NCBI RefSeq assembly: GCF_013122565.1
Contig: NZ_CP053258.1
DNA: 64,000 bases
DNA from: Escherichia coli
GTDB lineage: Bacteria; Pseudomonadota; Gammaproteobacteria; Enterobacterales; Enterobacteriaceae
Strand: one strand, 5' to 3'
This document shows positions 50,914 through 64,000 of the stretch, in pieces (within the stretch, counting starts at the first letter, position 1; each line of letters starts with the position of its first letter). Under the pieces are notes generated by a model. That model saw only the letters and a program-made list of their open reading frames with translations. It ran no database searches and was not told the origin of the DNA. The translations under genes were made by a program, and so were the position numbers.

Positions 50914-52482
50914 TTAGCGTGCCGGCTGAGTAGTCGTGGAAGACTGCTCAAAGTGATAGCGACCGGTTTTCAGGCTGCTTGGGCCGAGGCGTGCAAACTT
51001 GAACATTAAGAACAATTCTGCCACCAGGAACAGGGTATACAGGCCGCAAATCAGCACCATTGAGAAGATGAGATCGCCTGCGGTCAGTGACGAGTTCGCC
51101 ACAGCTGTCGGCAGCACTTCACCGATAGCCCACGGTTGGCGGCCATATTCAGCCACGAACCAGCCCGCTTCTACAGCAATCCACGGCAGCGGAATACCGT
51201 ACAGCGCGGCGCGCAGCAGCCATTTTTTCTCGCCAATGCGGTTGCGGATGACACTCCAGAAAGAGAGCGCGATGATTGCCAGCAGCAGGAAGCCACACGC
51301 CACCATGATACGGAACGCGAAGTACAGCGGCGCTACACGCGGAATGGAGTCTTTGGTTGCCTGTTGAATCTGAGCTTCAGTCGCATCAGCCACGTTTGGC
51401 GTATAGCGTTTCAGCAGCAGACCGTAACCGAGGTCTTTCTTCATGCTATTGAACTGGTCACGAACCGCCTGGTCGGTAGAACCAGAACGCAGTTGTTCGA
51501 GCAGAGAGTAAGCCTTCATCCCGTTACGAATGCGTTCTTCATGCTGCACCATCAGTTCTTTCAGGCCGATAACTGGAGTATCCACGGAACGCGTTGCAAT
51601 GATGCCCAGCGCGTAAGGGATCTGGATCGCAAATTTGTTCGTCTCCTCTTCCTGATCAGGAATGCCGAACAGAGTAAAGGCAGCAGGCGCAGGTTGCGTT
51701 TCCCACTCGGCTTCAATAGCAGCCAGTTTGGTTTTCTGCACGTCGCCCATTTCGTAACCAGATTCATCACCCAGAACAATAACAGACAGAACGGCAGCCA
51801 TACCGAAGCTGGCAGCGATAGCAAAGGAGCGTTTAGCGAAGGCGAAGTCACGACCTTTCAGCATATACCATGCGCTGATACCGAGGATGAACATCGCGCC
51901 AGTCACATAACCAGACGCTACAGTGTGAACGAATTTCACCTGAGCAACCGGGTTAAGCACCAGCTCGGAGAAGCTCACCATCTCCATACGCATAGTTTCA
52001 AAGTTGAAATCGGACGCGATTGGGTTTTGCATCCAGCCGTTCGCAACCAGAATCCACAGTGCGGACAGGTTTGAACCGAGCGCCACCAGCCAGGTGACAC
52101 ACATATGCTGAACTTTACCCAGACGATCCCAACCGAAGAAGAACAGACCTACAAAGGTGGATTCGAGGAAGAAGGCCATCAGACCTTCGATTGCCAGCGG
52201 CGCACCGAAGATATCCCCTACATAGTGGGAATAGTAAGACCAGTTAGTCCCGAACTGGAACTCCATAGTCAGACCGGTAGCCACACCCAGAGCGAAGTTG
52301 ATACCAAACAACTTGCCCCAGAACTTGGTCATATCTTTATAAATCTGTTTGCCGGAAAGGACGTAGACCGTTTCCATAATGGCCAGCAGGAACGCCATAC
52401 CGAGCGTCAGTGGCACAAAAAGGAAGTGGTACATCGCGGTCAAGGCAAACTGTAAGCGCGACAGTTCGACTATATCTAACAT
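50914..52482 (-). CDS. cydA: Cytochrome bd-I ubiquinol oxidase subunit I CydA, 522 aa
   Basis: ORF 50914..52485, start at second Met ([20 protein letters not shown]). Confidence 0.96.
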
Positions 52483-52819
52483 CATGACTCCTTGCTCATC
52501 GCATGAAGACTCCGAGAGTGAACCCCGTTAGAAAGGGTCACACGCATGCCCCAATACAAAATTATTTGCTCGCCTCTATCGTTGCCATTTCATCAAAAGA
52601 GGAAAAGACAATGATAAAAAAGTTGCAAATATGTTAATGAATAAACCAAATTGATCCCGTAATTATATTACGCCGCAAAATCCTTACAATAAACAGGTTT
52701 TTATTGAGCAAATTTGCATTTTTCGACAGTGATCAATTTATAGCGAAATTGTCACGATCTCACCAATTTGATCTACGACAATTTATCGTGTTTTGCAGAT
52801 TTTTTTCAAGAATTAAAAA

Positions 52820-52833
52820 TTGATTTATATCAA
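52820..52833. promoter_or_regulatory. FNR-consensus palindrome in the cydAB upstream region
   Basis: ttgatttatatcaa = TTGAT-N4-ATCAA exactly, about 340 nt upstream of cydA; the cydAB promoter is known to be FNR/ArcA controlled. Confidence 0.7.
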
Positions 52834-53287
52834 AACTAACCAAATATGTTAATTATGTATAAACCATAGATCATTAGTGATTTTATTGTTAATTTATTGT
52901 GAAATATTTATGCAACACAATTATTACAATGAAAAGGTATAGATAAAAAACCAGTGTTGTATTTAACAGAACCGCCTTATCCACTTTTTATAATACCAAT
53001 TGATTAGAGTAGCCAATTTGTTGCTATTTTACATAACATATTTTTATCAAAGTTAATTGATTGTTGCCTTTATGAGCACCGACCGTAAGCCCGTTATGTT
53101 ATTGTTTCATTGGTAATAATCACTTAAATGTATCGATGGAACAGGTATGACTTAGCGGGAGTGATTGTTTCTGAGTGAACAGGGGCCACTTTTGCCTGAT
53201 AAATGAAAAATGAGCGATTTTTGCAAGTTAGTTTTTCTATAGCCGTGTACGCTCAGCGCCTCGCTTGATTACAATGAGGTTGCTGCT

Positions 53288-54232
53288 ATGAGTCCTGATA
53301 ATATCGGTTCGGCTGTCAATCGCTTCTCAGGTTGGCCATCTAATGATCCTCTAAAAACAGATAAAGAATCAACGACATCACCCGTGACAGTGCAGGTAAT
53401 AAAGATGATTGCCGCCATCCTTGACCCACATCGGATAGTCGTTGGAATCGATACACTTTATACAACGCAGCGCGAAACATTTACCTCAGAGAGTCAACAG
53501 CTCATTGAATCAGCATTGCAAACACTTCATGTGATGAATTTAAATAACCTGGAAACAAATCGCGATGAAGAAGGTCACTATCTGGCTTTTGAATATAACG
53601 TTGACACCTCTGACAGAATAACCGTTTCTGCTTACAATGAAAAAAATCCTGGCTGCTATGGCCAATGTCTTTTAATACAGGATGACGAAACAGACTTATT
53701 CAACCTGATAAAAATTAAAATTTTTGAAGCCAGGCATAATTATGTCGCTCAATTGATGAGCGATCCAGAATTTATGTTCAAATTCAGTTATAGCGCTCAA
53801 CAAAATAGATTAGAACCTCATCTTCTGGTTCCCGCTTATTTCCCTCTAAAAACAAACGAACCGGTTACGCAAGAGGATGTACTGTTACTTTATCGTTTCT
53901 TTAAAATGAATGATGATTTTAACAAATTAACATCAGATGAATACATGAGTATCCTGACACCTCTGATGAAGTGTGAGCGTAGCGTCCACGACAACAACAG
54001 GTATGTGACGGGCAAAGATACCCTTCTTCTGGACTATCCTCCTTCTGGTAACCAGATACATTTCCATGTTTTCCCTGACGAATCAGCAACACTAGTCCTT
54101 TATTTTTCAAACAATGACCTTGAATATTTCGTCTTTGAAAGAGATATTCCGAGCCAGTATCGCTTTTTCAAAATGTTTACCAATCTGGCACTGGTTATAG
54201 ATCAGTTAACCGAAGCCCATAAAATACTTTAA
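53288..54232 (+). CDS. Hypothetical protein (314 aa), AT-rich, no family recognised
   Basis: ORF track; GAGG RBS 7-10 nt upstream; soluble, Ser/Pro/Asn-rich N-terminus. Confidence 0.55.
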   Translation: MSPDNIGSAVNRFSGWPSNDPLKTDKESTTSPVTVQVIKMIAAILDPHRIVVGIDTLYTTQRETFTSESQQLIESALQTLHVMNLNNLETNRDEEGHYLAFEYNVDTSDRITVSAYNEKNPGCYGQCLLIQDDETDLFNLIKIKIFEARHNYVAQLMSDPEFMFKFSYSAQQNRLEPHLLVPAYFPLKTNEPVTQEDVLLLYRFFKMNDDFNKLTSDEYMSILTPLMKCERSVHDNNRYVTGKDTLLLDYPPSGNQIHFHVFPDESATLVLYFSNNDLEYFVFERDIPSQYRFFKMFTNLALVIDQLTEAHKIL

Positions 54233-54312
54233 TTTTCTATATATCCCTATGGCAAATATTGCTAAACAATGCCTGGGGATTAATTTTTATTACTCACGGA
54301 AAGATTTAAATA

Positions 54313-54735
54313 ATGATATCATCTCAGATCTCTTTCAGTACTCTTCCTGTCAATGCAACATACGCTTCAGAGACAACAGTTGACACACAAAAATTCTCTG
54401 ACATCCTCTACTCAGCGGGGTGTTCCCTAAAGGATATGGCTTATCTGAGCAGATGTCTGGCATCAATACACCCGACTATCGCCAAAAACATTTATGAAAC
54501 AGAAAATCTCAGCGATCAAAAATTACTGCATATTGATTGCCGTAGTACAAATGACATCAAGATAAATATCTTTTTTGGTCAGCAACGAGAAGGATTAATT
54601 GAAATTAGTTCTGACACAGTTATTTTTTCGATACTGTCTTCATTGATTGACTCCGCCATTTCTAAATTTCAACATCAAAACCCGGTTAACGGTTCAGTTA
54701 ATCCTGAACTATTGTATGAGGATTATACTGATTAA
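54313..54735 (+). CDS. Hypothetical small acidic protein (140 aa), AT-rich
   Basis: ORF track; 80 nt downstream of the 314-aa ORF on the same strand; Ser-rich N-terminus. Confidence 0.5.
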   Translation: MISSQISFSTLPVNATYASETTVDTQKFSDILYSAGCSLKDMAYLSRCLASIHPTIAKNIYETENLSDQKLLHIDCRSTNDIKINIFFGQQREGLIEISSDTVIFSILSSLIDSAISKFQHQNPVNGSVNPELLYEDYTD

Positions 54736-55281
54736 ATCCACCCTGTCGCGAAAAATGGCCTGCGTTATTGCCAGACGTAATAAAACCTTTGATTAACGTT
54801 ACTCATACTGATAGCACCTTCATGTACCTCTCTTTTTTACGCAAATCAAAAGAGCTAACGAAGGTCATAATTCGCATGAATCATTAACCATTTGTTATTT
54901 TCAACATTACTTTTACATTAAGCAGAAATGAATGGTAGTGAAATTCGACTTAAATTTTATGAAATGCATTTACTTATGGCTAAACCCATATCACTAAAAT
55001 GCAAATTAGAAGTAGATCACAAATATCTCAATACACCAAATCAAGTTAATTTTAAAAATTTAACATTCATGACATTAGTTGACATAACACACTGAATTAA
55101 CATGGAAATTTAAAAACACACTTTAAACAATCATTTCCCGAAAGACATTTTGAAAATAGATCAATTGCAACATTACGGTCAGATAAAGACACTCCTGTGA
55201 TATTAAACCTGTGCCGTTATGAACGGCCATAAATACGACGTGTGTAACTTATTTTACTCTCTGTCTTACAAAGGATTACCC

Positions 55282-55731
55282 ATGAAGAAAGCAACACTTG
55301 TGATTGGCGTTATTGGCGCGGACTGCCATGCAGTAGGCAATAAAGTTCTGGACCGCGTTTTTAGCAACCACGACTTCAGAGTCATTAATCTGGGCGTAAT
55401 GGTCAGCCAGGACGAATATATTGATGCTGCCATTGAAACTGGCGCTGACGCGATTGTCGTCTCCTCTATCTATGGGCATGGCGATATCGACTGTCTGGGC
55501 ATGCGCGAACGCTGCATCGAGCGTGGACTGGGGGACATCCTGCTCTATGTGGGCGGTAACCTGGTGGTAGGAAAACATGACTTCGCTGACGTGGAAAACA
55601 AGTTCAAAGAGATGGGATTTGATCGCGTCTTTGCCCCAAGTCATGACTTAGAAGAGGTTTGTCAGCTGATGGCCCACGATATCAACCAACGTCATGACGT
55701 TGATACTCGCATTCTTGAAGAGGCAATCTGA
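55282..55731 (+). CDS. glmS: Glutamate mutase (methylaspartate mutase) S / sigma subunit, B12-binding, 149 aa
   Basis: ORF 55219..55731 with start at [22 protein letters not shown] (cobalamin-binding DxHxxG-type motif); family assignment from recognised conservation. Confidence 0.85.
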
Positions 55732-57119
55732 TGCAAATCGTCTCTGTCGATATTGGATCGACGTGGACCAAAGCAGCCCTCTTCACCCGGGAGGGGGACG
55801 CGTTAACGTTGGTTAACCACGTACTGACCCCAACCACCACCCATCATCTGGCGAAGGGGTTTTTCTCCAGCCTGAACCAGGTGTTAAACGTAGATAATGC
55901 CCTCCCCCTGTTAAACAGCGGTGAGGTTGCATTGAAGTATTCCTCCTCTGCCAAAGGTGGGCTGGCGGTTGCCGCAATGGGATTGGTGCCTTCTATCACC
56001 CTGGAAACCGCGAAAGTAACCGCTCACTCTGCGGGTGCTAAAATTGCGCAATATTACGCCTACAAGCTGAACCGCCGTGATATCCAGGCACTGGAAGAAA
56101 CGCAGCCCGATATTCTCTTGTTCACCGGCGGCACCGACGGCGGAGAAGAAAGCTACGGACTGAATAACGCCCGTGTGCTGGCAGAATCCAAACTCGACTG
56201 CGCCATTATTTATGCCGGAAACCGGGATATTCAGGACGAGGTGCAGGAGATCCTCGGACATAAAGACCTGACCATCGTCGACAACGTTCTGCCCGATCTT
56301 GACCATCCGAACCCTTTAGCCGCACGCCAGGCTATCTGCGACATATTCCTTAAACGCATCGTTAAAGGGAAAGGGCTGGATGTCATTGTTGATAAAACAG
56401 GCGAAGAACCAATGCCGACACCATGGACGGTCTTTGAACTGGTTAAGGCAATCAGTAACGTCGATCACAGCTGGAAAGAGTTCATGCTGATCGACATGGG
56501 CGGCGCAACCACCGATGTCTATTCCGCCTGTGCCAACACGCTCTCGCCCGACACCGTTTTACACGGCGTACCGGAACCCTTCGTAAAACGGACGGTGGAA
56601 GGCGATCTGGGAATGCGCGTCTCGGCAATGGTGGTTGGTGAAAGTGCGAAAGAGTTAGTCAATGTAAATTTTGCTCAGCAACCCGCACAGCTGGACGCTT
56701 TTTATCATTACCTCCGTCATTTAGTCGCTCATCCCGACTACTTACCCGCGAATGCAGAAGAAAAATATTTCGATACCGTCCTGGCCGGACTGTGTGTGGG
56801 TTATGCCACCGAAAGACATGCGGGCACCAAAAAAGAGGTCTGCACCTGCGTCGGCAATGTCGATTTACAAATGGGACGTGACCTGACAACCGTGCGTAAA
56901 GTCGTCGGATCCGGCGGATGGCTCTCGCGTGCCAGTCAGTTCGATATGCATCACTGGTTGAAATACCGCGAGTTAAACGACGACGGTAAACGCATTCTCT
57001 TACCGACCGAATTTGAATATTACCGCGATTCCCGGGGGCTATTACCACTGCTGGCAAACGTCGCCAGAGTCGATCCGCTGGCCGCCGCGCGCACCAGTAT
57101 TCAATGCTTAACCCTATAA
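55731..57119 (+). CDS. glmL: Glutamate mutase-associated protein GlmL/MutL (ASKHA-like)
   Basis: 462-aa ORF between S and E subunit genes ([18 protein letters not shown]); start shares one nt with the preceding stop. Confidence 0.75.
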   Translation: MQIVSVDIGSTWTKAALFTREGDALTLVNHVLTPTTTHHLAKGFFSSLNQVLNVDNALPLLNSGEVALKYSSSAKGGLAVAAMGLVPSITLETAKVTAHSAGAKIAQYYAYKLNRRDIQALEETQPDILLFTGGTDGGEESYGLNNARVLAESKLDCAIIYAGNRDIQDEVQEILGHKDLTIVDNVLPDLDHPNPLAARQAICDIFLKRIVKGKGLDVIVDKTGEEPMPTPWTVFELVKAISNVDHSWKEFMLIDMGGATTDVYSACANTLSPDTVLHGVPEPFVKRTVEGDLGMRVSAMVVGESAKELVNVNFAQQPAQLDAFYHYLRHLVAHPDYLPANAEEKYFDTVLAGLCVGYATERHAGTKKEVCTCVGNVDLQMGRDLTTVRKVVGSGGWLSRASQFDMHHWLKYRELNDDGKRILLPTEFEYYRDSRGLLPLLANVARVDPLAAARTSIQCLTL

Positions 57120-57137
57120 CAATTAAGGCTGCAATCA

Positions 57138-58583
57138 ATGGAACTTCGAAATAAGAAATTAACCCATGACGAATTCATGACCGAGCGGCAACAGGTACTG
57201 AAAACCTGGGAAACCGGCAAGGATGTTGAAAATTTTGAAGATGGCGTTAAATACCAACAAACCATTCCTGAGCATAAACGCTTCTCTCTCGCCCTGCTGA
57301 AAGCAGACAAGGAAGGTAAAACCCTTAGCCAACCGCGCGCAGGTGTGGCGCTGATGGACGAACACATCGAACTACTGAAAACACTACAAGAAGAGTGCGA
57401 TCTGCTGCCAAGCACCATCGATGCATATACCCGTCTGAATCGGTACGAAGAAGCGGCTGTAGGGATTAAAAAATCCATCGAAGCCGGAACCTCTAAACTG
57501 AACGGTTTACCGGTAGTTAACCACGGAGTCGCAGCTTGCCGTCGCCTCACCGAAACCCTGCAAAAACCGCTACAGATCCGCCACGGCACGCCAGATGCGC
57601 GTCTGCTGGCTGAAATCTCGATGGCCAGTGGCTTTACCAGTTACGAAGGCGGCGGCATTTCCTACAACATTCCGTATGCCAAACGCGTAACGCTGGAAAA
57701 ATCGATCCGCGACTGGCAGTACTGCGACCGTTTAATGGGGATGTATGAAGAACACGGGATCCGCATCAACCGCGAACCATTTGGCCCACTAACGGGTACG
57801 CTGATCCCGCCGTTTATCTCGCACTCTATCGCCATAATCGAAGGCTTGCTGGCGCTGGAACAGGGTGTGAAATCTATCACCGTTGGTTATGGCCAGGTCG
57901 GCAGCCTGACGCAGGATGTTGCGGCGATCCAGTCTCTGCGTGAACTTGCACATGAATACTTTCAGAGCTATGGCTATACCGACTATGAATTAAGTACCGT
58001 GTTTCACCAGTGGATGGGCGGCTTTCCGGAAGACGAATCGAAAGCGTTCGCTATTATCTCCTGGGGCGCAGCCGTCGCGGGGATGTCTGGTGCCACCAAA
58101 GTCATCACCAAAAGTCCGCACGAAGCCTGGGGTATCCCAACTGCCGCTGCCAACATTCAGGGGCTGAAAGCCTCCCGCCAGATGCTCAACATGGTCAATG
58201 AGCAGAAATTCCCGCCATGCCCTGCGGTTGAACTGGAAATTGAACTGATTAAGAGCGAGGTTCGCGCGGTACTGAATAAAGTGTTCGAACTGGGTAATGG
58301 TGATATTGCGCGCGGTACGGTGCTGGCATTTGAAGCGGGCGTACTGGATGTGCCGTTTGCGCCAGCCGCCTGCAACGCGGGCAAAATTCTTCCGGTCCGT
58401 GACAACACCGGCGCGATACGCGTACTGGAAGCCGGAGCCGTTCCATTGCCAAAAGATATTCTCGACCTCCACCACGATTACGTTGCGGAACGCGCACGCT
58501 GTGAAGGACGCCAACCGACATTCCAGATGGTTGTAGATGACATCAATGCTGTATCCCACAGTAAATTAATAGGAAGACCATAA
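57138..58583 (+). CDS. glmE: Glutamate mutase (methylaspartate mutase) E / epsilon subunit
   Basis: 481-aa ORF, characteristic size and position. Confidence 0.8.
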   Translation: MELRNKKLTHDEFMTERQQVLKTWETGKDVENFEDGVKYQQTIPEHKRFSLALLKADKEGKTLSQPRAGVALMDEHIELLKTLQEECDLLPSTIDAYTRLNRYEEAAVGIKKSIEAGTSKLNGLPVVNHGVAACRRLTETLQKPLQIRHGTPDARLLAEISMASGFTSYEGGGISYNIPYAKRVTLEKSIRDWQYCDRLMGMYEEHGIRINREPFGPLTGTLIPPFISHSIAIIEGLLALEQGVKSITVGYGQVGSLTQDVAAIQSLRELAHEYFQSYGYTDYELSTVFHQWMGGFPEDESKAFAIISWGAAVAGMSGATKVITKSPHEAWGIPTAAANIQGLKASRQMLNMVNEQKFPPCPAVELEIELIKSEVRAVLNKVFELGNGDIARGTVLAFEAGVLDVPFAPAACNAGKILPVRDNTGAIRVLEAGAVPLPKDILDLHHDYVAERARCEGRQPTFQMVVDDINAVSHSKLIGRP

Positions 58584-59824
58584 TGAAAATAAAACAGGCC
58601 CTGTTCACCGCTGGCTATTCCTCATTCTATTTCGATGACCAGCAGGCGATAAAAAACGGAGCGGGTCACGACGGCTTTTTTTATACCGGGGAGCCAGTAA
58701 CACAGGGGTTTAACGCCGTACGTCAGGCCGGGGAGTGCGTATCGGTACAGTTGATTCTGGAAAACGGCGCGGTCGCTGTAGGTGACTGTGCTGCCGTACA
58801 GTATTCCGGGGCAGGTGGTCGCGATCCACTGTTCCTCGCAGAGCACTTTATTCCGTTCCTCAACGACCATATTAAGCCATTACTGGTAGGCCGCGATGTG
58901 GATACTTTCCTGCCGAATGCCCGTTTCTTCGACAAATTGCGTATTGACGGCAACTTGCTGCATACCGCCGTGCGCTACGGATTATCACAGGCGCTGCTTG
59001 ATGCTACCGCGCTGGCAACCGGCCGTCTGAAAACTGAAGTGGTCTGTGATGAATGGCAGTTGCCACGCGTGGCGGAATCCATTCCATTATTTGGTCAGAG
59101 CGGCGACGATCGATATATCGCCGTCGATAAGATGATCCTTAAGGGCATCGACGTGCTGCCCCATGCGCTGATTAATAACGTCGAAGAGAAGCTGGGCTTT
59201 AAAGGTGAAAAACTGAGCGAATATGTCCGCTGGTTGTCGGATCGCATTCTAAGCAAGCGCACCAGCGCGCGCTACCACCCTACCCTGCACATCGATGTAT
59301 ACGGCACTATCGGTCTGATCTTCGATATGGATCCGCTCCGCTGTGCGCAATACATCGCCAGCCTGGAAAAAGAAGCGCAAGGCCTGCCGCTCTACATCGA
59401 AGGGCCGGTCGATGCCGGTAACAAGCCCGATCAAATTCGCCTGCTGACCGCGATTACCAAAGAGCTGACGCGCCTCGGTTCCGGCGTGAAAATTGTGGCC
59501 GATGAATGGTGTAACACCTACCAGGATATTGTTGATTTCACTGATGCTGCCAGTTGTCACATGGTGCAAATCAAAACCCCGGATCTGGGCAGTATTCACA
59601 ACATCGTCGATGCGGTTCTTTACTGCAACAGCCACAGCATGGAAGCGTACCAGGGCGGCACCTGCAATGAAACTGATGTCAGTGCCCGCACCTGTGTCCA
59701 CGTCGCCCTTGCCGCTCGCCCTATGCGTATGCTGGTAAAACCAGGGATGGGCTTTGACGAAGGCCTCGATATCGTCTTCAACGAAATGAATCGTACTATC
59801 GCGCTGTTGCAGGCTAAGGATTAA
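58583..59824 (+). CDS. Methylaspartate ammonia-lyase (enolase superfamily)
   Basis: 413-aa ORF (MKIKQALFTAGYSSFYFDDQQAIKNGAGHDGFFYTGEP...), directly after the mutase genes. Confidence 0.8.
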   Translation: MKIKQALFTAGYSSFYFDDQQAIKNGAGHDGFFYTGEPVTQGFNAVRQAGECVSVQLILENGAVAVGDCAAVQYSGAGGRDPLFLAEHFIPFLNDHIKPLLVGRDVDTFLPNARFFDKLRIDGNLLHTAVRYGLSQALLDATALATGRLKTEVVCDEWQLPRVAESIPLFGQSGDDRYIAVDKMILKGIDVLPHALINNVEEKLGFKGEKLSEYVRWLSDRILSKRTSARYHPTLHIDVYGTIGLIFDMDPLRCAQYIASLEKEAQGLPLYIEGPVDAGNKPDQIRLLTAITKELTRLGSGVKIVADEWCNTYQDIVDFTDAASCHMVQIKTPDLGSIHNIVDAVLYCNSHSMEAYQGGTCNETDVSARTCVHVALAARPMRMLVKPGMGFDEGLDIVFNEMNRTIALLQAKD

Positions 59825-59827
59825 CAA

Positions 59828-61198
59828 ATGGCTCGTTCTTTTAAAGTCTTATCGCCAACGGCAATCCTCGGGTATGGATTCCCGGAAGAGAGCTTCCGCA
59901 AAGCGATGGCAGAATCGCCCGATCTGATCGCCGTTGATGCCGGCTCTTCCGATCCAGGCCCCCACTACCTCGGGGCAGGCAAACCGTTTACCGATCGCGC
60001 AGGGGTCAAGCGCGATCTGCGCTATATGATCACCGCAGGCGTGCAAAATAATATACCGGTGGTGATCGGAACGGCTGGCGGTTCTGGTGCCGCACCACAC
60101 CTGGAGTGGTGCCGAGAAATAATTCATGAGATTGCCCGGGAAGAGCACCTCTCGTTCTCGATGGCGTTGATCCCGGCAGACGTTGACAAAGCCATCGTCC
60201 ACCAGGCGCTGGATAACGGCAAAATCACGGCGCTGGATTTTGTCCCGCCGTTAACCCACGACGCGATTGACGAAAGTACGTATATCGTTGCGCAAATGGG
60301 CATCGAACCCTTCCAGCGGGCTCTGAAAGAAGGCGCGCAAGTGGTGCTGGGCGGGCGCGCTTACGACCCGGCCTGCTTTGCTGCGCTCCCGATCATGCAA
60401 GGCTTTGATGAAGGTCTGGCGCTGCATTGTGGGAAAATCCTTGAGTGCGCAGCAATCGCCGCAACGCCCGGCTCAGGCTCTGACTGTGCGATGGGCATCA
60501 TTGATGACAACGGCTTTACGCTGAAGACATTTAATCCGAAGCGTAAATTTACCGAAACGTCAGCAGCTGCACACACACTGTATGAAAAATCCGATCCCTA
60601 CTTCCTGCCAGGACCTGGCGGCGTGTTGAACCTGAAAGGCTGCACATTTAAAGCAGTCAATGACGGCGAAGTCTACGTCAGCGGTTCTAAGCATGAAGAA
60701 ACGCCGTATGCCCTGAAACTGGAAGGTGCACGACGGGTGGGCTTCCGCTGTCTGACCATCGCCGGAACGCGCGACCCGATCATGATCGCCGGGATCGATA
60801 AAATCATCGATGAAGTCAAAATCAGCGTTTCGCGTAACCTGTCGCTTGACGATGACAGCATTCGCATCAATTTCCACCTGTACGGCAAAAACGGGGTGAT
60901 GGGCGACCATGAACCGATGCAAACTACCGGGCATGAGCTGGGGATTGTCCTTGATGTAGTTGCACCGACCCAGGAAATTGCCAACAGCGTTTGCTCGCTG
61001 GTGCGCTCTACCATGCTGCACTACGGCTATGAAAACCGCATCGCTACCGCAGGCAACCTGGCGTTCCCGTTCTCCCCTTCTGATATCCAGGGCGGGCCGG
61101 TATACGAATTTTCCATATATCACCTGATTGAAGCCAACGACGCTCTGCGTTTTGATTTCCATATTGAACAGGTGACGCCAGAAGGAGTTCAGGTATGA
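59828..61198 (+). CDS. DUF1446 (AtuA-like) family protein, function unknown
   Basis: 456-aa ORF; family assignment from memory of conserved N-terminal region; unverified. Confidence 0.55.
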   Translation: MARSFKVLSPTAILGYGFPEESFRKAMAESPDLIAVDAGSSDPGPHYLGAGKPFTDRAGVKRDLRYMITAGVQNNIPVVIGTAGGSGAAPHLEWCREIIHEIAREEHLSFSMALIPADVDKAIVHQALDNGKITALDFVPPLTHDAIDESTYIVAQMGIEPFQRALKEGAQVVLGGRAYDPACFAALPIMQGFDEGLALHCGKILECAAIAATPGSGSDCAMGIIDDNGFTLKTFNPKRKFTETSAAAHTLYEKSDPYFLPGPGGVLNLKGCTFKAVNDGEVYVSGSKHEETPYALKLEGARRVGFRCLTIAGTRDPIMIAGIDKIIDEVKISVSRNLSLDDDSIRINFHLYGKNGVMGDHEPMQTTGHELGIVLDVVAPTQEIANSVCSLVRSTMLHYGYENRIATAGNLAFPFSPSDIQGGPVYEFSIYHLIEANDALRFDFHIEQVTPEGVQV

Positions 61199-61512
61199 AA
61201 CAGTCAATTGTCTCACTGGCGCAAGTCATTCGTTCGAAAAATGCCGGTCCTTACGAACTGGTTTTAGATATTTTATTTAAAACGAAAGAAAACTATGAGC
61301 GAGTTAAATCATCAGGGCAATTAACCCCAGAACTGATTGCGCGCTTATATCATGTTGAACCTGACTTTATTCATCGTATTGTCTGGTTTGATCCTTCTAA
61401 CGCAGTAAAAATCGTCATGCCACGAGATATTATCTCCGGGAATGTAGGTGACAATGATGTCTATGGTGCACAGCAACATGCACCTTTATTAAATATGAGT
61501 TTCGATTTGTAA
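61195..61512 (+). CDS. Small protein (105 aa), likely DUF4387 partner of the DUF1446 protein
   Basis: Start overlaps the upstream stop by 4 nt (ATGA), which is direct evidence of tight gene coupling; family name from memory. Confidence 0.5.
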   Translation: MKQSIVSLAQVIRSKNAGPYELVLDILFKTKENYERVKSSGQLTPELIARLYHVEPDFIHRIVWFDPSNAVKIVMPRDIISGNVGDNDVYGAQQHAPLLNMSFDL

Positions 61513-61672
61513 AAATCCGAACACTTTTAGCCAACTGACATCCCATCACTTATTGCAGTTCAACACTTCAGCTATTTGTAAGGTTGTAATAGCAGGTAGA
61601 TGCCTGAGTCTCTATTCAGGCATCTACTTCTCCTGATTCTGATTTATCGCCGTGCACCTGATGGAGGAAAAA

Positions 61673-62953
61673 ATGAAGAAAATAAGTTTAACCACGATGA
61701 TTCTTTTGGCGCTGGTACTTGGAATGATTATCGGCGTAGTGCTCAATAACACTGCTTCACCGGAAACCGCAAAACTCTATGCGCAAGAAATATCGATATT
61801 CACGACGATTTTCTTACGACTGATAAAAATGATTATCGCTCCGTTAGTGGTCTCTACCCTGGTGGTAGGTATAGCTAAAATGGGCGATGCCAAAGCCCTT
61901 GGTCGTATTTTTTCTAAAACACTTTTTTTATTTATTTGCGCCTCATTGCTGTCAATTGCCTTAGGCTTGATAACAGTAAATTTCTTCATGCCAGGCACAG
62001 GAATTAATTTTGTTGCACACGGAGCCGAAACCACCGGAGTGGTCGCGTCAGAACCCTTTACGCTAAAAGTATTTATTTCGCATGCTTTCCCCACCAGCAT
62101 TGTCGATGCCATGGCGCACAATGAAATTTTGCAAATCGTGGTGTTCTCAATTTTCCTCGGCTGTAGCCTGACGGCGATTGGCGAGAAAGGCAGCGCCATC
62201 GTTCACGCCTTAGATTCGCTGGCACATGCCATGTTAAAGCTCACTGGCTACGTCATGCTCTTCGCTCCCCTGACCGTATTCGCCGCTATTTCAGCATTGA
62301 TTGCTGAACGAGGACTGGCAGTTATGGTGAGCGCCGGGATCTTTATGGGTGAATTTTATTTCACCATGTTGTTACTTTGGGTACTGCTTATCGGTCTGGC
62401 CATCGTTTATGTCGGCCCCTGCATCAGACGCCTGACCCGCGCCCTTTCGGAACCCGCCCTGCTGGCATTTACCACATCCAGTTCTGAAGCGGCTTTTCCG
62501 GGAACGCTTGAAAAACTGGAGCAATTTGGCGTTTCCCCCAAAATTGCCAGCTTTGTCTTACCCATTGGCTACTCATTTAATCTCGTTGGATCAATGGCCT
62601 ACTGCTCCTTCGCCACAGTTTTCATCGCCCAGGCCTGCAATATCCATTTATCCATCGGTGAGCAAATCACCATGCTGTTGATCCTGATGTTGACCTCGAA
62701 AGGAATGGCTGGCGTACCACGCGCCTCAATGGTGGTTATCGCCGCCACGCTCAACCAGTTCAATATTCCGGAAGCAGGGCTGATCTTGCTGATGGGCGTT
62801 GATCCGTTCCTTGATATGGGGCGTTCCGCGACAAACGTCATGAGCAACGCAATGGGCGCTGCGATGGTGAGTCGGTGGGAAGGCGAACATTTCGGCGAGG
62901 GCTGTCGGGGTAAAGCATTAAAACCCAATGAATCGAACGTTGCTCTGCCCTGA
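61673..62953 (+). CDS. Dicarboxylate/amino acid:cation symporter (DAACS, GltP-like), probably glutamate/aspartate uptake
   Basis: ORF 61652..62953; start chosen at ATG 61673 with GGAGG RBS; polytopic membrane protein with GltP-family character. Confidence 0.8.
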   Translation: MKKISLTTMILLALVLGMIIGVVLNNTASPETAKLYAQEISIFTTIFLRLIKMIIAPLVVSTLVVGIAKMGDAKALGRIFSKTLFLFICASLLSIALGLITVNFFMPGTGINFVAHGAETTGVVASEPFTLKVFISHAFPTSIVDAMAHNEILQIVVFSIFLGCSLTAIGEKGSAIVHALDSLAHAMLKLTGYVMLFAPLTVFAAISALIAERGLAVMVSAGIFMGEFYFTMLLLWVLLIGLAIVYVGPCIRRLTRALSEPALLAFTTSSSEAAFPGTLEKLEQFGVSPKIASFVLPIGYSFNLVGSMAYCSFATVFIAQACNIHLSIGEQITMLLILMLTSKGMAGVPRASMVVIAATLNQFNIPEAGLILLMGVDPFLDMGRSATNVMSNAMGAAMVSRWEGEHFGEGCRGKALKPNESNVALP

Positions 62954-63060
62954 GGGGGATCTTAAGCAATCAGAAGCCAATGACTACGCATTTTTATAAG
63001 CCGGATCATGAAGTTAGACGGCAATTAAGTAACACTAACGTTTAAGGTGAAAAGTGAAAT

Positions 63061-64000
63061 ATGTCCAAACCATTTATCTGGCAAGAACCGTTTCTACAAA
63101 ATAAAGACGGTACAGAATATACATTAATTAGCGATCAACATATTACAGTAACGGAATTAGACGGCGAAGAAGTGATAAAAATCGCTCCTGAAGCATTAAC
63201 GCTGCTTGCCCGGCAGGCATTTTATGAAGCCTCTTTTTTCTTACGTTCCGCTCATTTGCAACAGGTCGCCAGCATTCTTAACGATCCGCAGGCCAGTAGT
63301 AATGATAAATACGTTGCGTTGCAGTTATTACGTAATGCTGAAGTCTCAGCAAAAGGGGTATTACCCAACTGTCAGGATACCGGCACCGCAACTATTGTTG
63401 CCAGGAAAGGGCAACAGATATGGACCGGAGGTAACGACGCTGAAGCCTTAAGCAAAGGCATTTACACCACTTTCCAGGAAAATAATCTGCGCTTTTCACA
63501 AAATGCGCCGCTGGATATGTATACCGAAGTCAATACGCAAACCAATCTCCCGGCGCAGATTGATATCAGCGCCGTCGCTGGTGATGAGTACCATTTTCTC
63601 TGTGTTAATAAAGGGGGCGGCTCCGCCAATAAAGCCACGCTTTATCAGGAAACCAAATCCTTATTGCAACCAGAAAAACTGACCGCATTTTTAATCGAAA
63701 AAATGAAATCGCTGGGCACCGCTGCCTGCCCGCCTTACCACATCGCCTTTGTCGTCGGAGGGCTTTCAGCCGATCAAACCTTAAAAGTTGCCAAGCTGGC
63801 TTCTACGAAATATTACGACAATTTGCCCACCAGCGGAAACGAGCAGGGACAAGCATTCCGTGATATTGAGCTGGAAAAAGTGATGCTCGAGGCCAGTCAG
63901 CAATTTGGTATTGGTGCGCAATTTGGGGGTAAATATTTCGCTCATGATATTCGCGTCATTCGTCTGCCGCGTCACGGTGGCTCCTGCCCGATAGCTATGG
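63061..64000 (+). CDS. fumD: Class I fumarate hydratase paralog (FumA/FumB-like; mesaconase/fumarase FumD-type), 3' end beyond window
   Basis: Hand translation from ATG 63061, open to the window end: [23 protein letters not shown]...CQDTGTA...GGGSANKA...[12 protein letters not shown], collinear with FumA; not in ORF track because truncated. Confidence 0.8.

Follow-up and report, generated by a model that had tools for sequence, protein, structure and literature searches.

The gene cluster that carries the transporter studied here was described by Kronen and Berg in 2015 (PLoS One, PMC4682846), who characterized its fumarase as FumD, a mesaconase/fumarase with a preference for mesaconate, and who drew the transporter gene in their Fig. 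5 as “GltP, glutamate transporter”, a name that appears there as a label only. In Escherichia coli O157:H7, the same authors detected no expression of the cluster, no anaerobic growth on glutamate and neither methylaspartate ammonia-lyase nor citramalate lyase activity, and they called the fate of (S)-citramalate “still unclear”. Given that expression, growth on glutamate and citramalate lyase all went undetected in O157:H7, the name “glutamate fermentation cluster”, used for this locus in the preliminary description, is an analogy. Our literature search by locus tag, keywords and “DUF4387” returned nothing relevant to the gene beyond this paper, and no transport measurement was found for ECs0758 or for any relative from the “VPRAS” group discussed below. 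The idea of a glutamate transporter is already known, both from the 2015 paper and from the annotation of more than 1000 genomes. What comparison of the sequences adds here is the placement of the carrier in a separate subfamily, its strict linkage to the cluster, a predicted amino-acid-type binding site, a signature of H+ coupling, and the apparently selected loss of the Asp of the NMDG motif.

The window, a stretch of 64,000 nucleotides of E. coli DNA, contains on its + strand a 426-codon ORF that reads from an ATG at 61673 to a TGA at 62951-62953. The preliminary description had taken it for a DAACS-family transporter with a strong GGAGG ribosome-binding site, and both points hold. The Pfam SDF profile PF00375 matches residues 6-402 of the 426-residue product with 343 bits (cut-off 27.9; E=2.2e-102) over profile positions 1-387 of 387, an E-value and a full coverage that place the match far beyond chance, and the RefSeq/PGAP annotation has the identical 1281-nt CDS (61673..62953, +; the ECs0758 orthologue, WP_000724204.1) in at least 1121 E. 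coli genomes as “dicarboxylate/amino acid:cation symporter”. In the Sakai strain (O157:H7), the locus tag is ECs_0758 and the annotation is “transport protein”; the protein is 100% identical to the cluster representative P0001, which stands for 1411 member sequences. The Shine-Dalgarno sequence GGAGG lies at 61663..61667 (+), separated from the ATG by a 5-nt AAAAA spacer, and its core, GATGGAG, is invariant in 7 genera. The full GGAGG, with an extra G as the fifth base, is specific to E. coli, other genera having GGAG. This E. coli-specific G also brings an upstream GTG (61652) and an ATG within the Shine-Dalgarno region (61661) into frame, so that a mechanically produced ORF list begins seven codons too early; in other genera, a TAA follows the ATG equivalent to 61661, or that ATG is out of frame. 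The start at 61673 is supported by the orthologues, all of which begin with MKKI and in which the upstream ATG runs into a stop or a frame shift.

In annotated E. coli genomes, the cluster occupies an accessory island between cydAB and sucABCD, with the order two hypothetical genes, glmS, glmL, glmE, methylaspartate ammonia-lyase, AtuA-family gene, DUF4387 gene, transporter, class I fumarase, cobO and a divergent LysR regulator. A 1.7-kb query from the end of the DUF4387 gene through the transporter to the start of the fumarase gene matched at ≥95% identity, nearly always over its full length, in 1123 of 5426 complete E. coli genomes, and the cluster arrangement around the transporter was found in 1121 of the 5426. 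About a fifth of E. coli genomes, and most O157:H7 strains, carry the B12-dependent cluster. Within the window, all on the + strand, glmS (55282-55731), glmL (55731-57119), glmE (57138-58583) and mal, encoding methylaspartate ammonia-lyase (58583-59824), were assigned by Pfam, NCBIfam and RefSeq, with each of the four proteins scoring above its own NCBIfam equivalog cut-off. The location of the transporter gene between the pair of DUF-type genes and the fumarase gene, as first described, is likewise confirmed by Pfam and NCBIfam: upstream are the AtuA-like gene (PF07287; 59828-61198) and the DUF4387 gene (61195-61512), both also in RefSeq, and downstream is the 5' part of fumD (63061..64000, +), the class I fumarase/mesaconase gene, which is cut by the window end and matches NF011921 with 710 bits over the 313 residues within the window. 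Downstream of fumD, complete genomes have cobO and then the divergent LysR regulator.

Several features of these surroundings are worth recording. The AtuA-like and DUF4387 genes, which are found in nearly every cluster examined, share 4 nt in the window (ATGA, 61195-61198); in the Sakai annotation, the former is mislabelled “3-methylaspartate ammonia-lyase” and the latter “acyl-CoA synthetase”. Given that the pathway has no identified citramalate-cleaving enzyme (PMC4682846), the products of these two genes are candidates for the missing step. Between cydA and glmS, there is a stretch of low GC content (52500-55200; 36-39% vs 51-56% in the flanks) with two ORFs, 53288-54232 and 54313-54735, that have no Pfam match, are annotated as “hypothetical” in E. 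coli and have no counterpart at the Klebsiella locus (L004).

The 160-nt spacer between the DUF4387 gene and the transporter gene contains a predicted 16-bp stem-loop (61594..61629, +; RNA folding). A hairpin is found at the same place in Escherichia sp., Citrobacter, Salmonella, Enterobacter and Buttiauxella, with stems that differ in sequence (GTAGATGCCTGA vs GCGTGCGCCTGA), and this constancy of position, combined with compensating changes in the stem, points to selection on the structure. Among the genera compared, no U-tract follows the hairpin outside E. coli, and a terminator consensus scan of 54700-64000 picked it up as a weak 5-bp stem. A sigma-70 consensus scan of the same interval identified no + strand site in the spacer, and an Rfam scan of 52400-64000 at E≤1 returned no riboswitch or leader match, such as a cobalamin element. 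Probably, the transporter gene is co-transcribed with the genes upstream, through the conserved intercistronic hairpin, which itself may be an element of intercistronic processing, stability or attenuation.

To what extent the carrier is dedicated to the cluster, as the preliminary description had put it, can be judged from a scan of GTDB species-representative genomes, which yielded 80 loci in which the cluster proteins were placed by tblastn. All 55 orthologues at ≥73% identity, from about 15 genera of Enterobacterales, were examined, along with the remaining 25 relatives at ≤57%. The orthologues come from Escherichia, Citrobacter, Enterobacter, Klebsiella/Raoultella, Salmonella, Lelliottia, Buttiauxella, Pluralibacter, Pseudescherichia, Yokenella, Morganella, Yersinia, Hafnia, Budvicia and others. 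The claim is borne out, with 54 of the 55 orthologues adjoining methylaspartate-pathway genes: 49 lie directly 3' of the DUF4387 gene in the arrangement glmS-glmL-glmE-mal-AtuA-DUF4387, and five are a second Morganella paralogue, located directly 5' of fumD-cobO. The single exception is a stray copy in Trabulsiella. Among the 25 relatives at ≤57% identity (from Chitinophaga, Zymomonas, Crenothrix, MAGs, a DctA-type sequence of Vogesella, and others), there is none with a cluster gene within 10 kb. Comparative genomics could not show a tighter linkage.

The Morganella cluster comes in two parts, separated by about 35 kb, one consisting of glmSLE-mal-AtuA-DUF4387-transporter (L037-L041 and L043) and the other of transporter-fumD-cobO beside cobalamin biosynthesis genes (L045-L047, L050 and L051), with one transporter paralogue in each. 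The two paralogues have diverged to dN of ~0.11 and dS of ~1.4 and retain identical binding motifs. The neighbourhood of the second copy contains regulators, cobalamin genes and unrelated transporters only; no citramalate lyase or other gene that would complete the pathway was found there. The stray orthologue of Trabulsiella odontotermitis (L032, 10001-13600) has IS66-family transposase genes and a truncated aminotransferase gene as neighbours, which suggests a transposed fragment. A 7.3-kb contig labelled “MAG: Collinsella sp.” (L006, JAIJJM010000101.1) carries the cluster with a 100% identical transporter and neighbours at 97-100% identity; the contig almost certainly belongs to E. coli and was mis-binned into an actinobacterial MAG.

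The preliminary description had called the transporter GltP-like and proposed its placement relative to GltP, DctA and SstT as a check. Membership in the DAACS/SDF family (TC 2.A.23) stands. Of the family motifs, the protein has SSSE in HP1, GVPRAS in HP2 and D381, R384 and N388 in TM8, but TM7 carries NLVG, which lacks the Asp of N-x-D-G. The closest relatives with solved structures are aspartate/glutamate transporters (E=1e-68 to 1e-52 over residues 5-406). Membership in GltP proper does not stand: the protein is 39% identical to GltP and 34% identical to DctA of E. coli K-12, and it scores below the cut-offs for all three groups, with 302 bits against 638 for the GltP equivalog NF008440, 312 and 275 bits against 513 and 570 for the DctA models NF002461 and NF009587, and 67 bits against 308 for SstT NF010151. 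In a search of 1.8 billion cluster representatives and in a neighbor-joining (NJ) tree of the relatives retrieved, which was built without bootstrap support and is used descriptively, the protein falls in a large third group marked by the HP2 tip “GVPRAS”, apart from the GltP-type (VPGVS) and DctA-type (VTGSG) sequences; the mark itself, V348-P349-R350-A351-S352, is encoded at 62714..62728 (+). The alignments and the tree assign the carrier to a third subfamily, “VPRAS”, outside the GltP and DctA orthologue groups. We found no characterized member of this group, and the source names of ten subfamily representatives are generic labels.

The substrate can be approached through TM8, where the segment D381-M-G-R384-S-A-T-N388-V-M-S391-N392 (62813..62848, +) aligns with D394, R397, N401, G404 and D405 of GltPh. 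In GltPh, D394 binds the alpha-amino group and R397 the side-chain carboxylate of the substrate, and this pair determines that amino acids are preferred to dicarboxylates, and acidic amino acids to neutral ones (PMC12668577). Both residues, D381 and R384 here, are invariant in all 55 orthologues, as expected of a carrier of acidic amino acids, whereas E. coli DctA (MSEAR) and every DctA-type sequence examined have Ser at the D394 position; the retention of this pair favours glutamate or aspartate over a C5 dicarboxylate such as mesaconate. A second line of evidence comes from the neighbourhood. Between the transporter gene and fumD, 29 of the 55 loci have an inserted glutaminase gene, namely, Klebsiella oxytoca (L004, 11383-12384) and 28 others; most genera show this insertion. 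The Klebsiella protein has about 23 extra N-terminal residues with Sec-type features (K4, a hydrophobic core and AAA|QG; MNVKFLGTCLFTASLLFCGAAAA|QG), and its Pfam glutaminase domain starts at residue 46; a periplasmic glutaminase of this kind would produce glutamate where the carrier takes up its substrate. The gene is missing in E. coli, Salmonella and some C. amalonaticus, where the gap between the transporter gene and fumD is about 100 bp.

Dedicated glutamate uptake, one of the two roles initially proposed, is the best-supported reading of these data, and we consider it reasonably probable: the binding residues and the neighbouring glutaminase genes fit it. The product would be an inner-membrane, elevator-type DAACS (SLC1-like) carrier for the uptake of an acidic L-amino acid, L-glutamate being the most likely and aspartate probably accepted too, to judge from D381, R384 and N388 and from the glutaminase genes of other genera. 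The imported glutamate would supply the B12-dependent glutamate mutase, and then methylaspartate ammonia-lyase and the mesaconase FumD. It counts against this reading that O157:H7 showed neither anaerobic growth on glutamate nor methylaspartate ammonia-lyase activity, which makes glutamate a less certain substrate for the cluster as a whole, and that E. coli already transports glutamate by means of GltP, GltS, GltIJKL and GadC.

Import of another acidic amino acid, L-threo-3-methylaspartate or L-aspartate, which would enter the pathway at the lyase rather than at the mutase step, is unlikely. D381, R384, N388 and S307 are common to Asp-selective and Glu-accepting members of the family and cannot tell glutamate, aspartate and 3-methylaspartate apart, and many enterobacteria that fail to grow on glutamate nevertheless have methylaspartate ammonia-lyase activity (PMC4682846). 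However, a complete glmS, glmL and glmE together with cobO is always part of the cluster, and this equipment would be pointless unless glutamate were the input; the co-located glutaminase, with its predicted secretion signal, yields glutamate; and the enterobacterial strains cited in the same paper showed no growth on methylaspartate alone.

A DctA-like carrier by which mesaconate, citramalate or fumarate would be imported or exported for FumD appears quite improbable, and so does the exchange of a C5 dicarboxylate intermediate that had been suggested for this gene as an alternative to glutamate uptake. The top NCBIfam score does go to a DctA subfamily model (312 vs 302 bits for GltP), but it is far below the cut-off of 513. 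The location of the gene is compatible with such a role, directly 5' of fumD and, in the second Morganella paralogue, at the head of a separate fumD-cobO unit; so is the preference of FumD for mesaconate, and a dicarboxylate might have to exit the cell at the end of the pathway. The two Morganella paralogues, however, have identical binding motifs. The residues point the other way, too: the LDMGR motif keeps the Asp that contacts the amino group, which is replaced by Ser in every DctA-type sequence examined, with MSEAR or similar in DctA and all 13 DctA-type sequences, and the HP2 tip is VPRAS rather than the VTG(S/G)G of these proteins. The NJ tree also places the protein outside the DctA group.

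With glutamate uptake as the preferred reading, the question of the coupling ion arises. Reddy et al. (2025, PMC12668577) define the H+-coupled clade of the family by Ala, Leu, Ile, Val, Met or Phe at position 92 (GltPh numbering), L311, N405 and the substitution S279E, a putative protonation site. With the numbering checked in the alignment, all four features are found in the transporter, as A90, L304, N392 and E272. The first of these is part of A90-S91 in TM3 (61940..61945, +), equivalent to T92-S93 of GltPh, and the last belongs to S269-S270-S271-E272 in HP1 (62477..62488, +), equivalent to R276-S279. The pattern of the Na+-coupled clade (Ser or Thr at 92-93, N310, Met or Ser at 311, Asp or Glu at 312 and Asp or Glu at 405) is not matched, the corresponding residues being A-S, N, L, V and N. 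From this signature, we infer coupling by H+ rather than Na+.

The most unusual feature of the protein is in TM7, where N303-L304-V305-G306 (62579..62590, +) replaces N(M/L)DG, so that V305 occupies the position of GltPh D312 in the Na3 site. Valine is present at this position in 55 of 55 orthologues of the cluster-linked clade, and Asp in 14 of 14 sequences of the nearest outgroup. Altogether, 14 positions carry substitutions that define the clade, four of them in TM3 or the cation sites, namely, G82F, Y88L, D312V and G404S; Y88L and G82F adjoin Y89 of the Na3 site, and G404S adjoins position 405 of Na1. In GltPh, D312A is non-functional (PMC3302783), and D312N loses both Na3 binding and the conformational switch of the NMDGT motif (PMC9171649). 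Given that D312 is essential in GltPh, the mechanism cannot simply be copied over from the characterized members, and with Val in place of the buried cation-site Asp, the coupling stoichiometry may differ from that of GltP.

The cluster-linked clade is not alone in this respect. The position was tallied in 130 sequences, namely, those of the best 150 representative hits in which N and G flank the site. Asp is found in 99 of them and another residue in 31 (13 Val, 7 Thr, and others); at least three of the 13 Val sequences are short fragments from the cluster-linked clade itself. The sequences without Asp lie dispersed in the NJ tree and occur in unrelated genomic contexts: no methylaspartate genes were found beside three such relatives, P0125 (next to alanine racemase), P0128 (peptidases and an aminotransferase) and P0148 (a LysR regulator), so that loss of D312 does not track the cluster. 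This frequency, in unrelated contexts, indicates that the change need not abolish coupling. We found no discussion of natural variation at the D312 position in the family literature searched. One tentative and admittedly doubtful interpretation is that the NMDG motif has a natural “Asp-less” variant in the cluster-linked clade, whose buried Na3-type site would be filled with hydrophobic residues and whose members would move fewer protons than GltP or none. If so, an Asp-less glutamate facilitator or exchanger would provide cheap uptake matched to a low-yield fermentative pathway, and would show that the central coupling switch of the family is dispensable in an H+-type background.

That the protein is no concentrative symporter, and facilitates or exchanges with weak coupling or independently of cations (for example, glutamate in and product out), seems very unlikely. 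It is consistent with V305 and the concerted changes Y88L, G82F and G404S near Na3 and Na1, with the loss of Na3 binding in D312 mutants of GltPh, and with the cation-independent exchange shown for a reconstructed intermediate of the family (PMC12668577); against it, all four residues of the H+ signature are kept, including the putative protonation site E272, and the 31 of 130 tallied sequences without the Asp come from unrelated contexts. That the gene is a decaying or non-functional passenger of the island, as the missing residue, essential in model homologues, and the failure to detect expression of the cluster in E. coli might suggest, is effectively refuted by the selection analysis, by which the gene is clearly functional and under strong purifying selection (dN/dS of about 0.05), with dN/dS of 0.04-0.07 against Escherichia sp., Citrobacter, Salmonella, Klebsiella and Morganella, synonymous sites near saturation, and an intact ORF with all functional motifs invariant in 55 species-level genomes.

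As first described, a glutamate-type transporter in this cluster is an ordinary observation, and the points added here offer a modest, testable angle for those who study transporter mechanisms. The substrate of the carrier, together with the signal of the LysR regulator, would offer a direct way to the conditions under which enterobacteria use the cluster. Furthermore, a DAACS carrier that is under selection and nevertheless lacks the Asp indispensable in GltPh and the EAATs is a convenient bacterial test case for the gain and loss of coupling in the SLC1 family.

Compared with known systems, the gene is the very one labelled “GltP, glutamate transporter” in Fig. 5 of PMC4682846, where it is not placed in a subfamily. 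The archaeal Na+:aspartate symporters GltPh and GltTk, for which structures have been solved, can be aligned over residues 8-404 (E ~1e-53) and share the ligands D394, R397 and N401, with Ser in the transporter for T314; T92, M311, D312 and D405 of GltPh, however, are replaced by Ala, Leu, Val and Asn, so that the side-chain ligands of Na3 and Na1 are largely gone. DctA of E. coli (C4-dicarboxylate/orotate:H+ symporter, b3528, NF002461) belongs to the same family, has the same H+-type signature and gives the top score, 312 bits, but differs in having MSEAR where the transporter has LDMGR, in the VTGSG tip of HP2 and in the retained NLDG, at 34% identity. GltP of E. coli (glutamate/aspartate:H+ symporter, b4077, NF008440) shares the family, the fold and the H+-type signature, with a hydrophobic residue at 92, L311, N405 and E279, and also SSSE, the GYSFNL context and the Asp and Arg of TM8. 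At 39% identity, it differs in VPGVS (VPRAS in the transporter), in IT in TM3 (AS) and in NLDG (NLVG), and whereas the gltP gene belongs to the core genome, the transporter gene is accessory and borne by the cluster.
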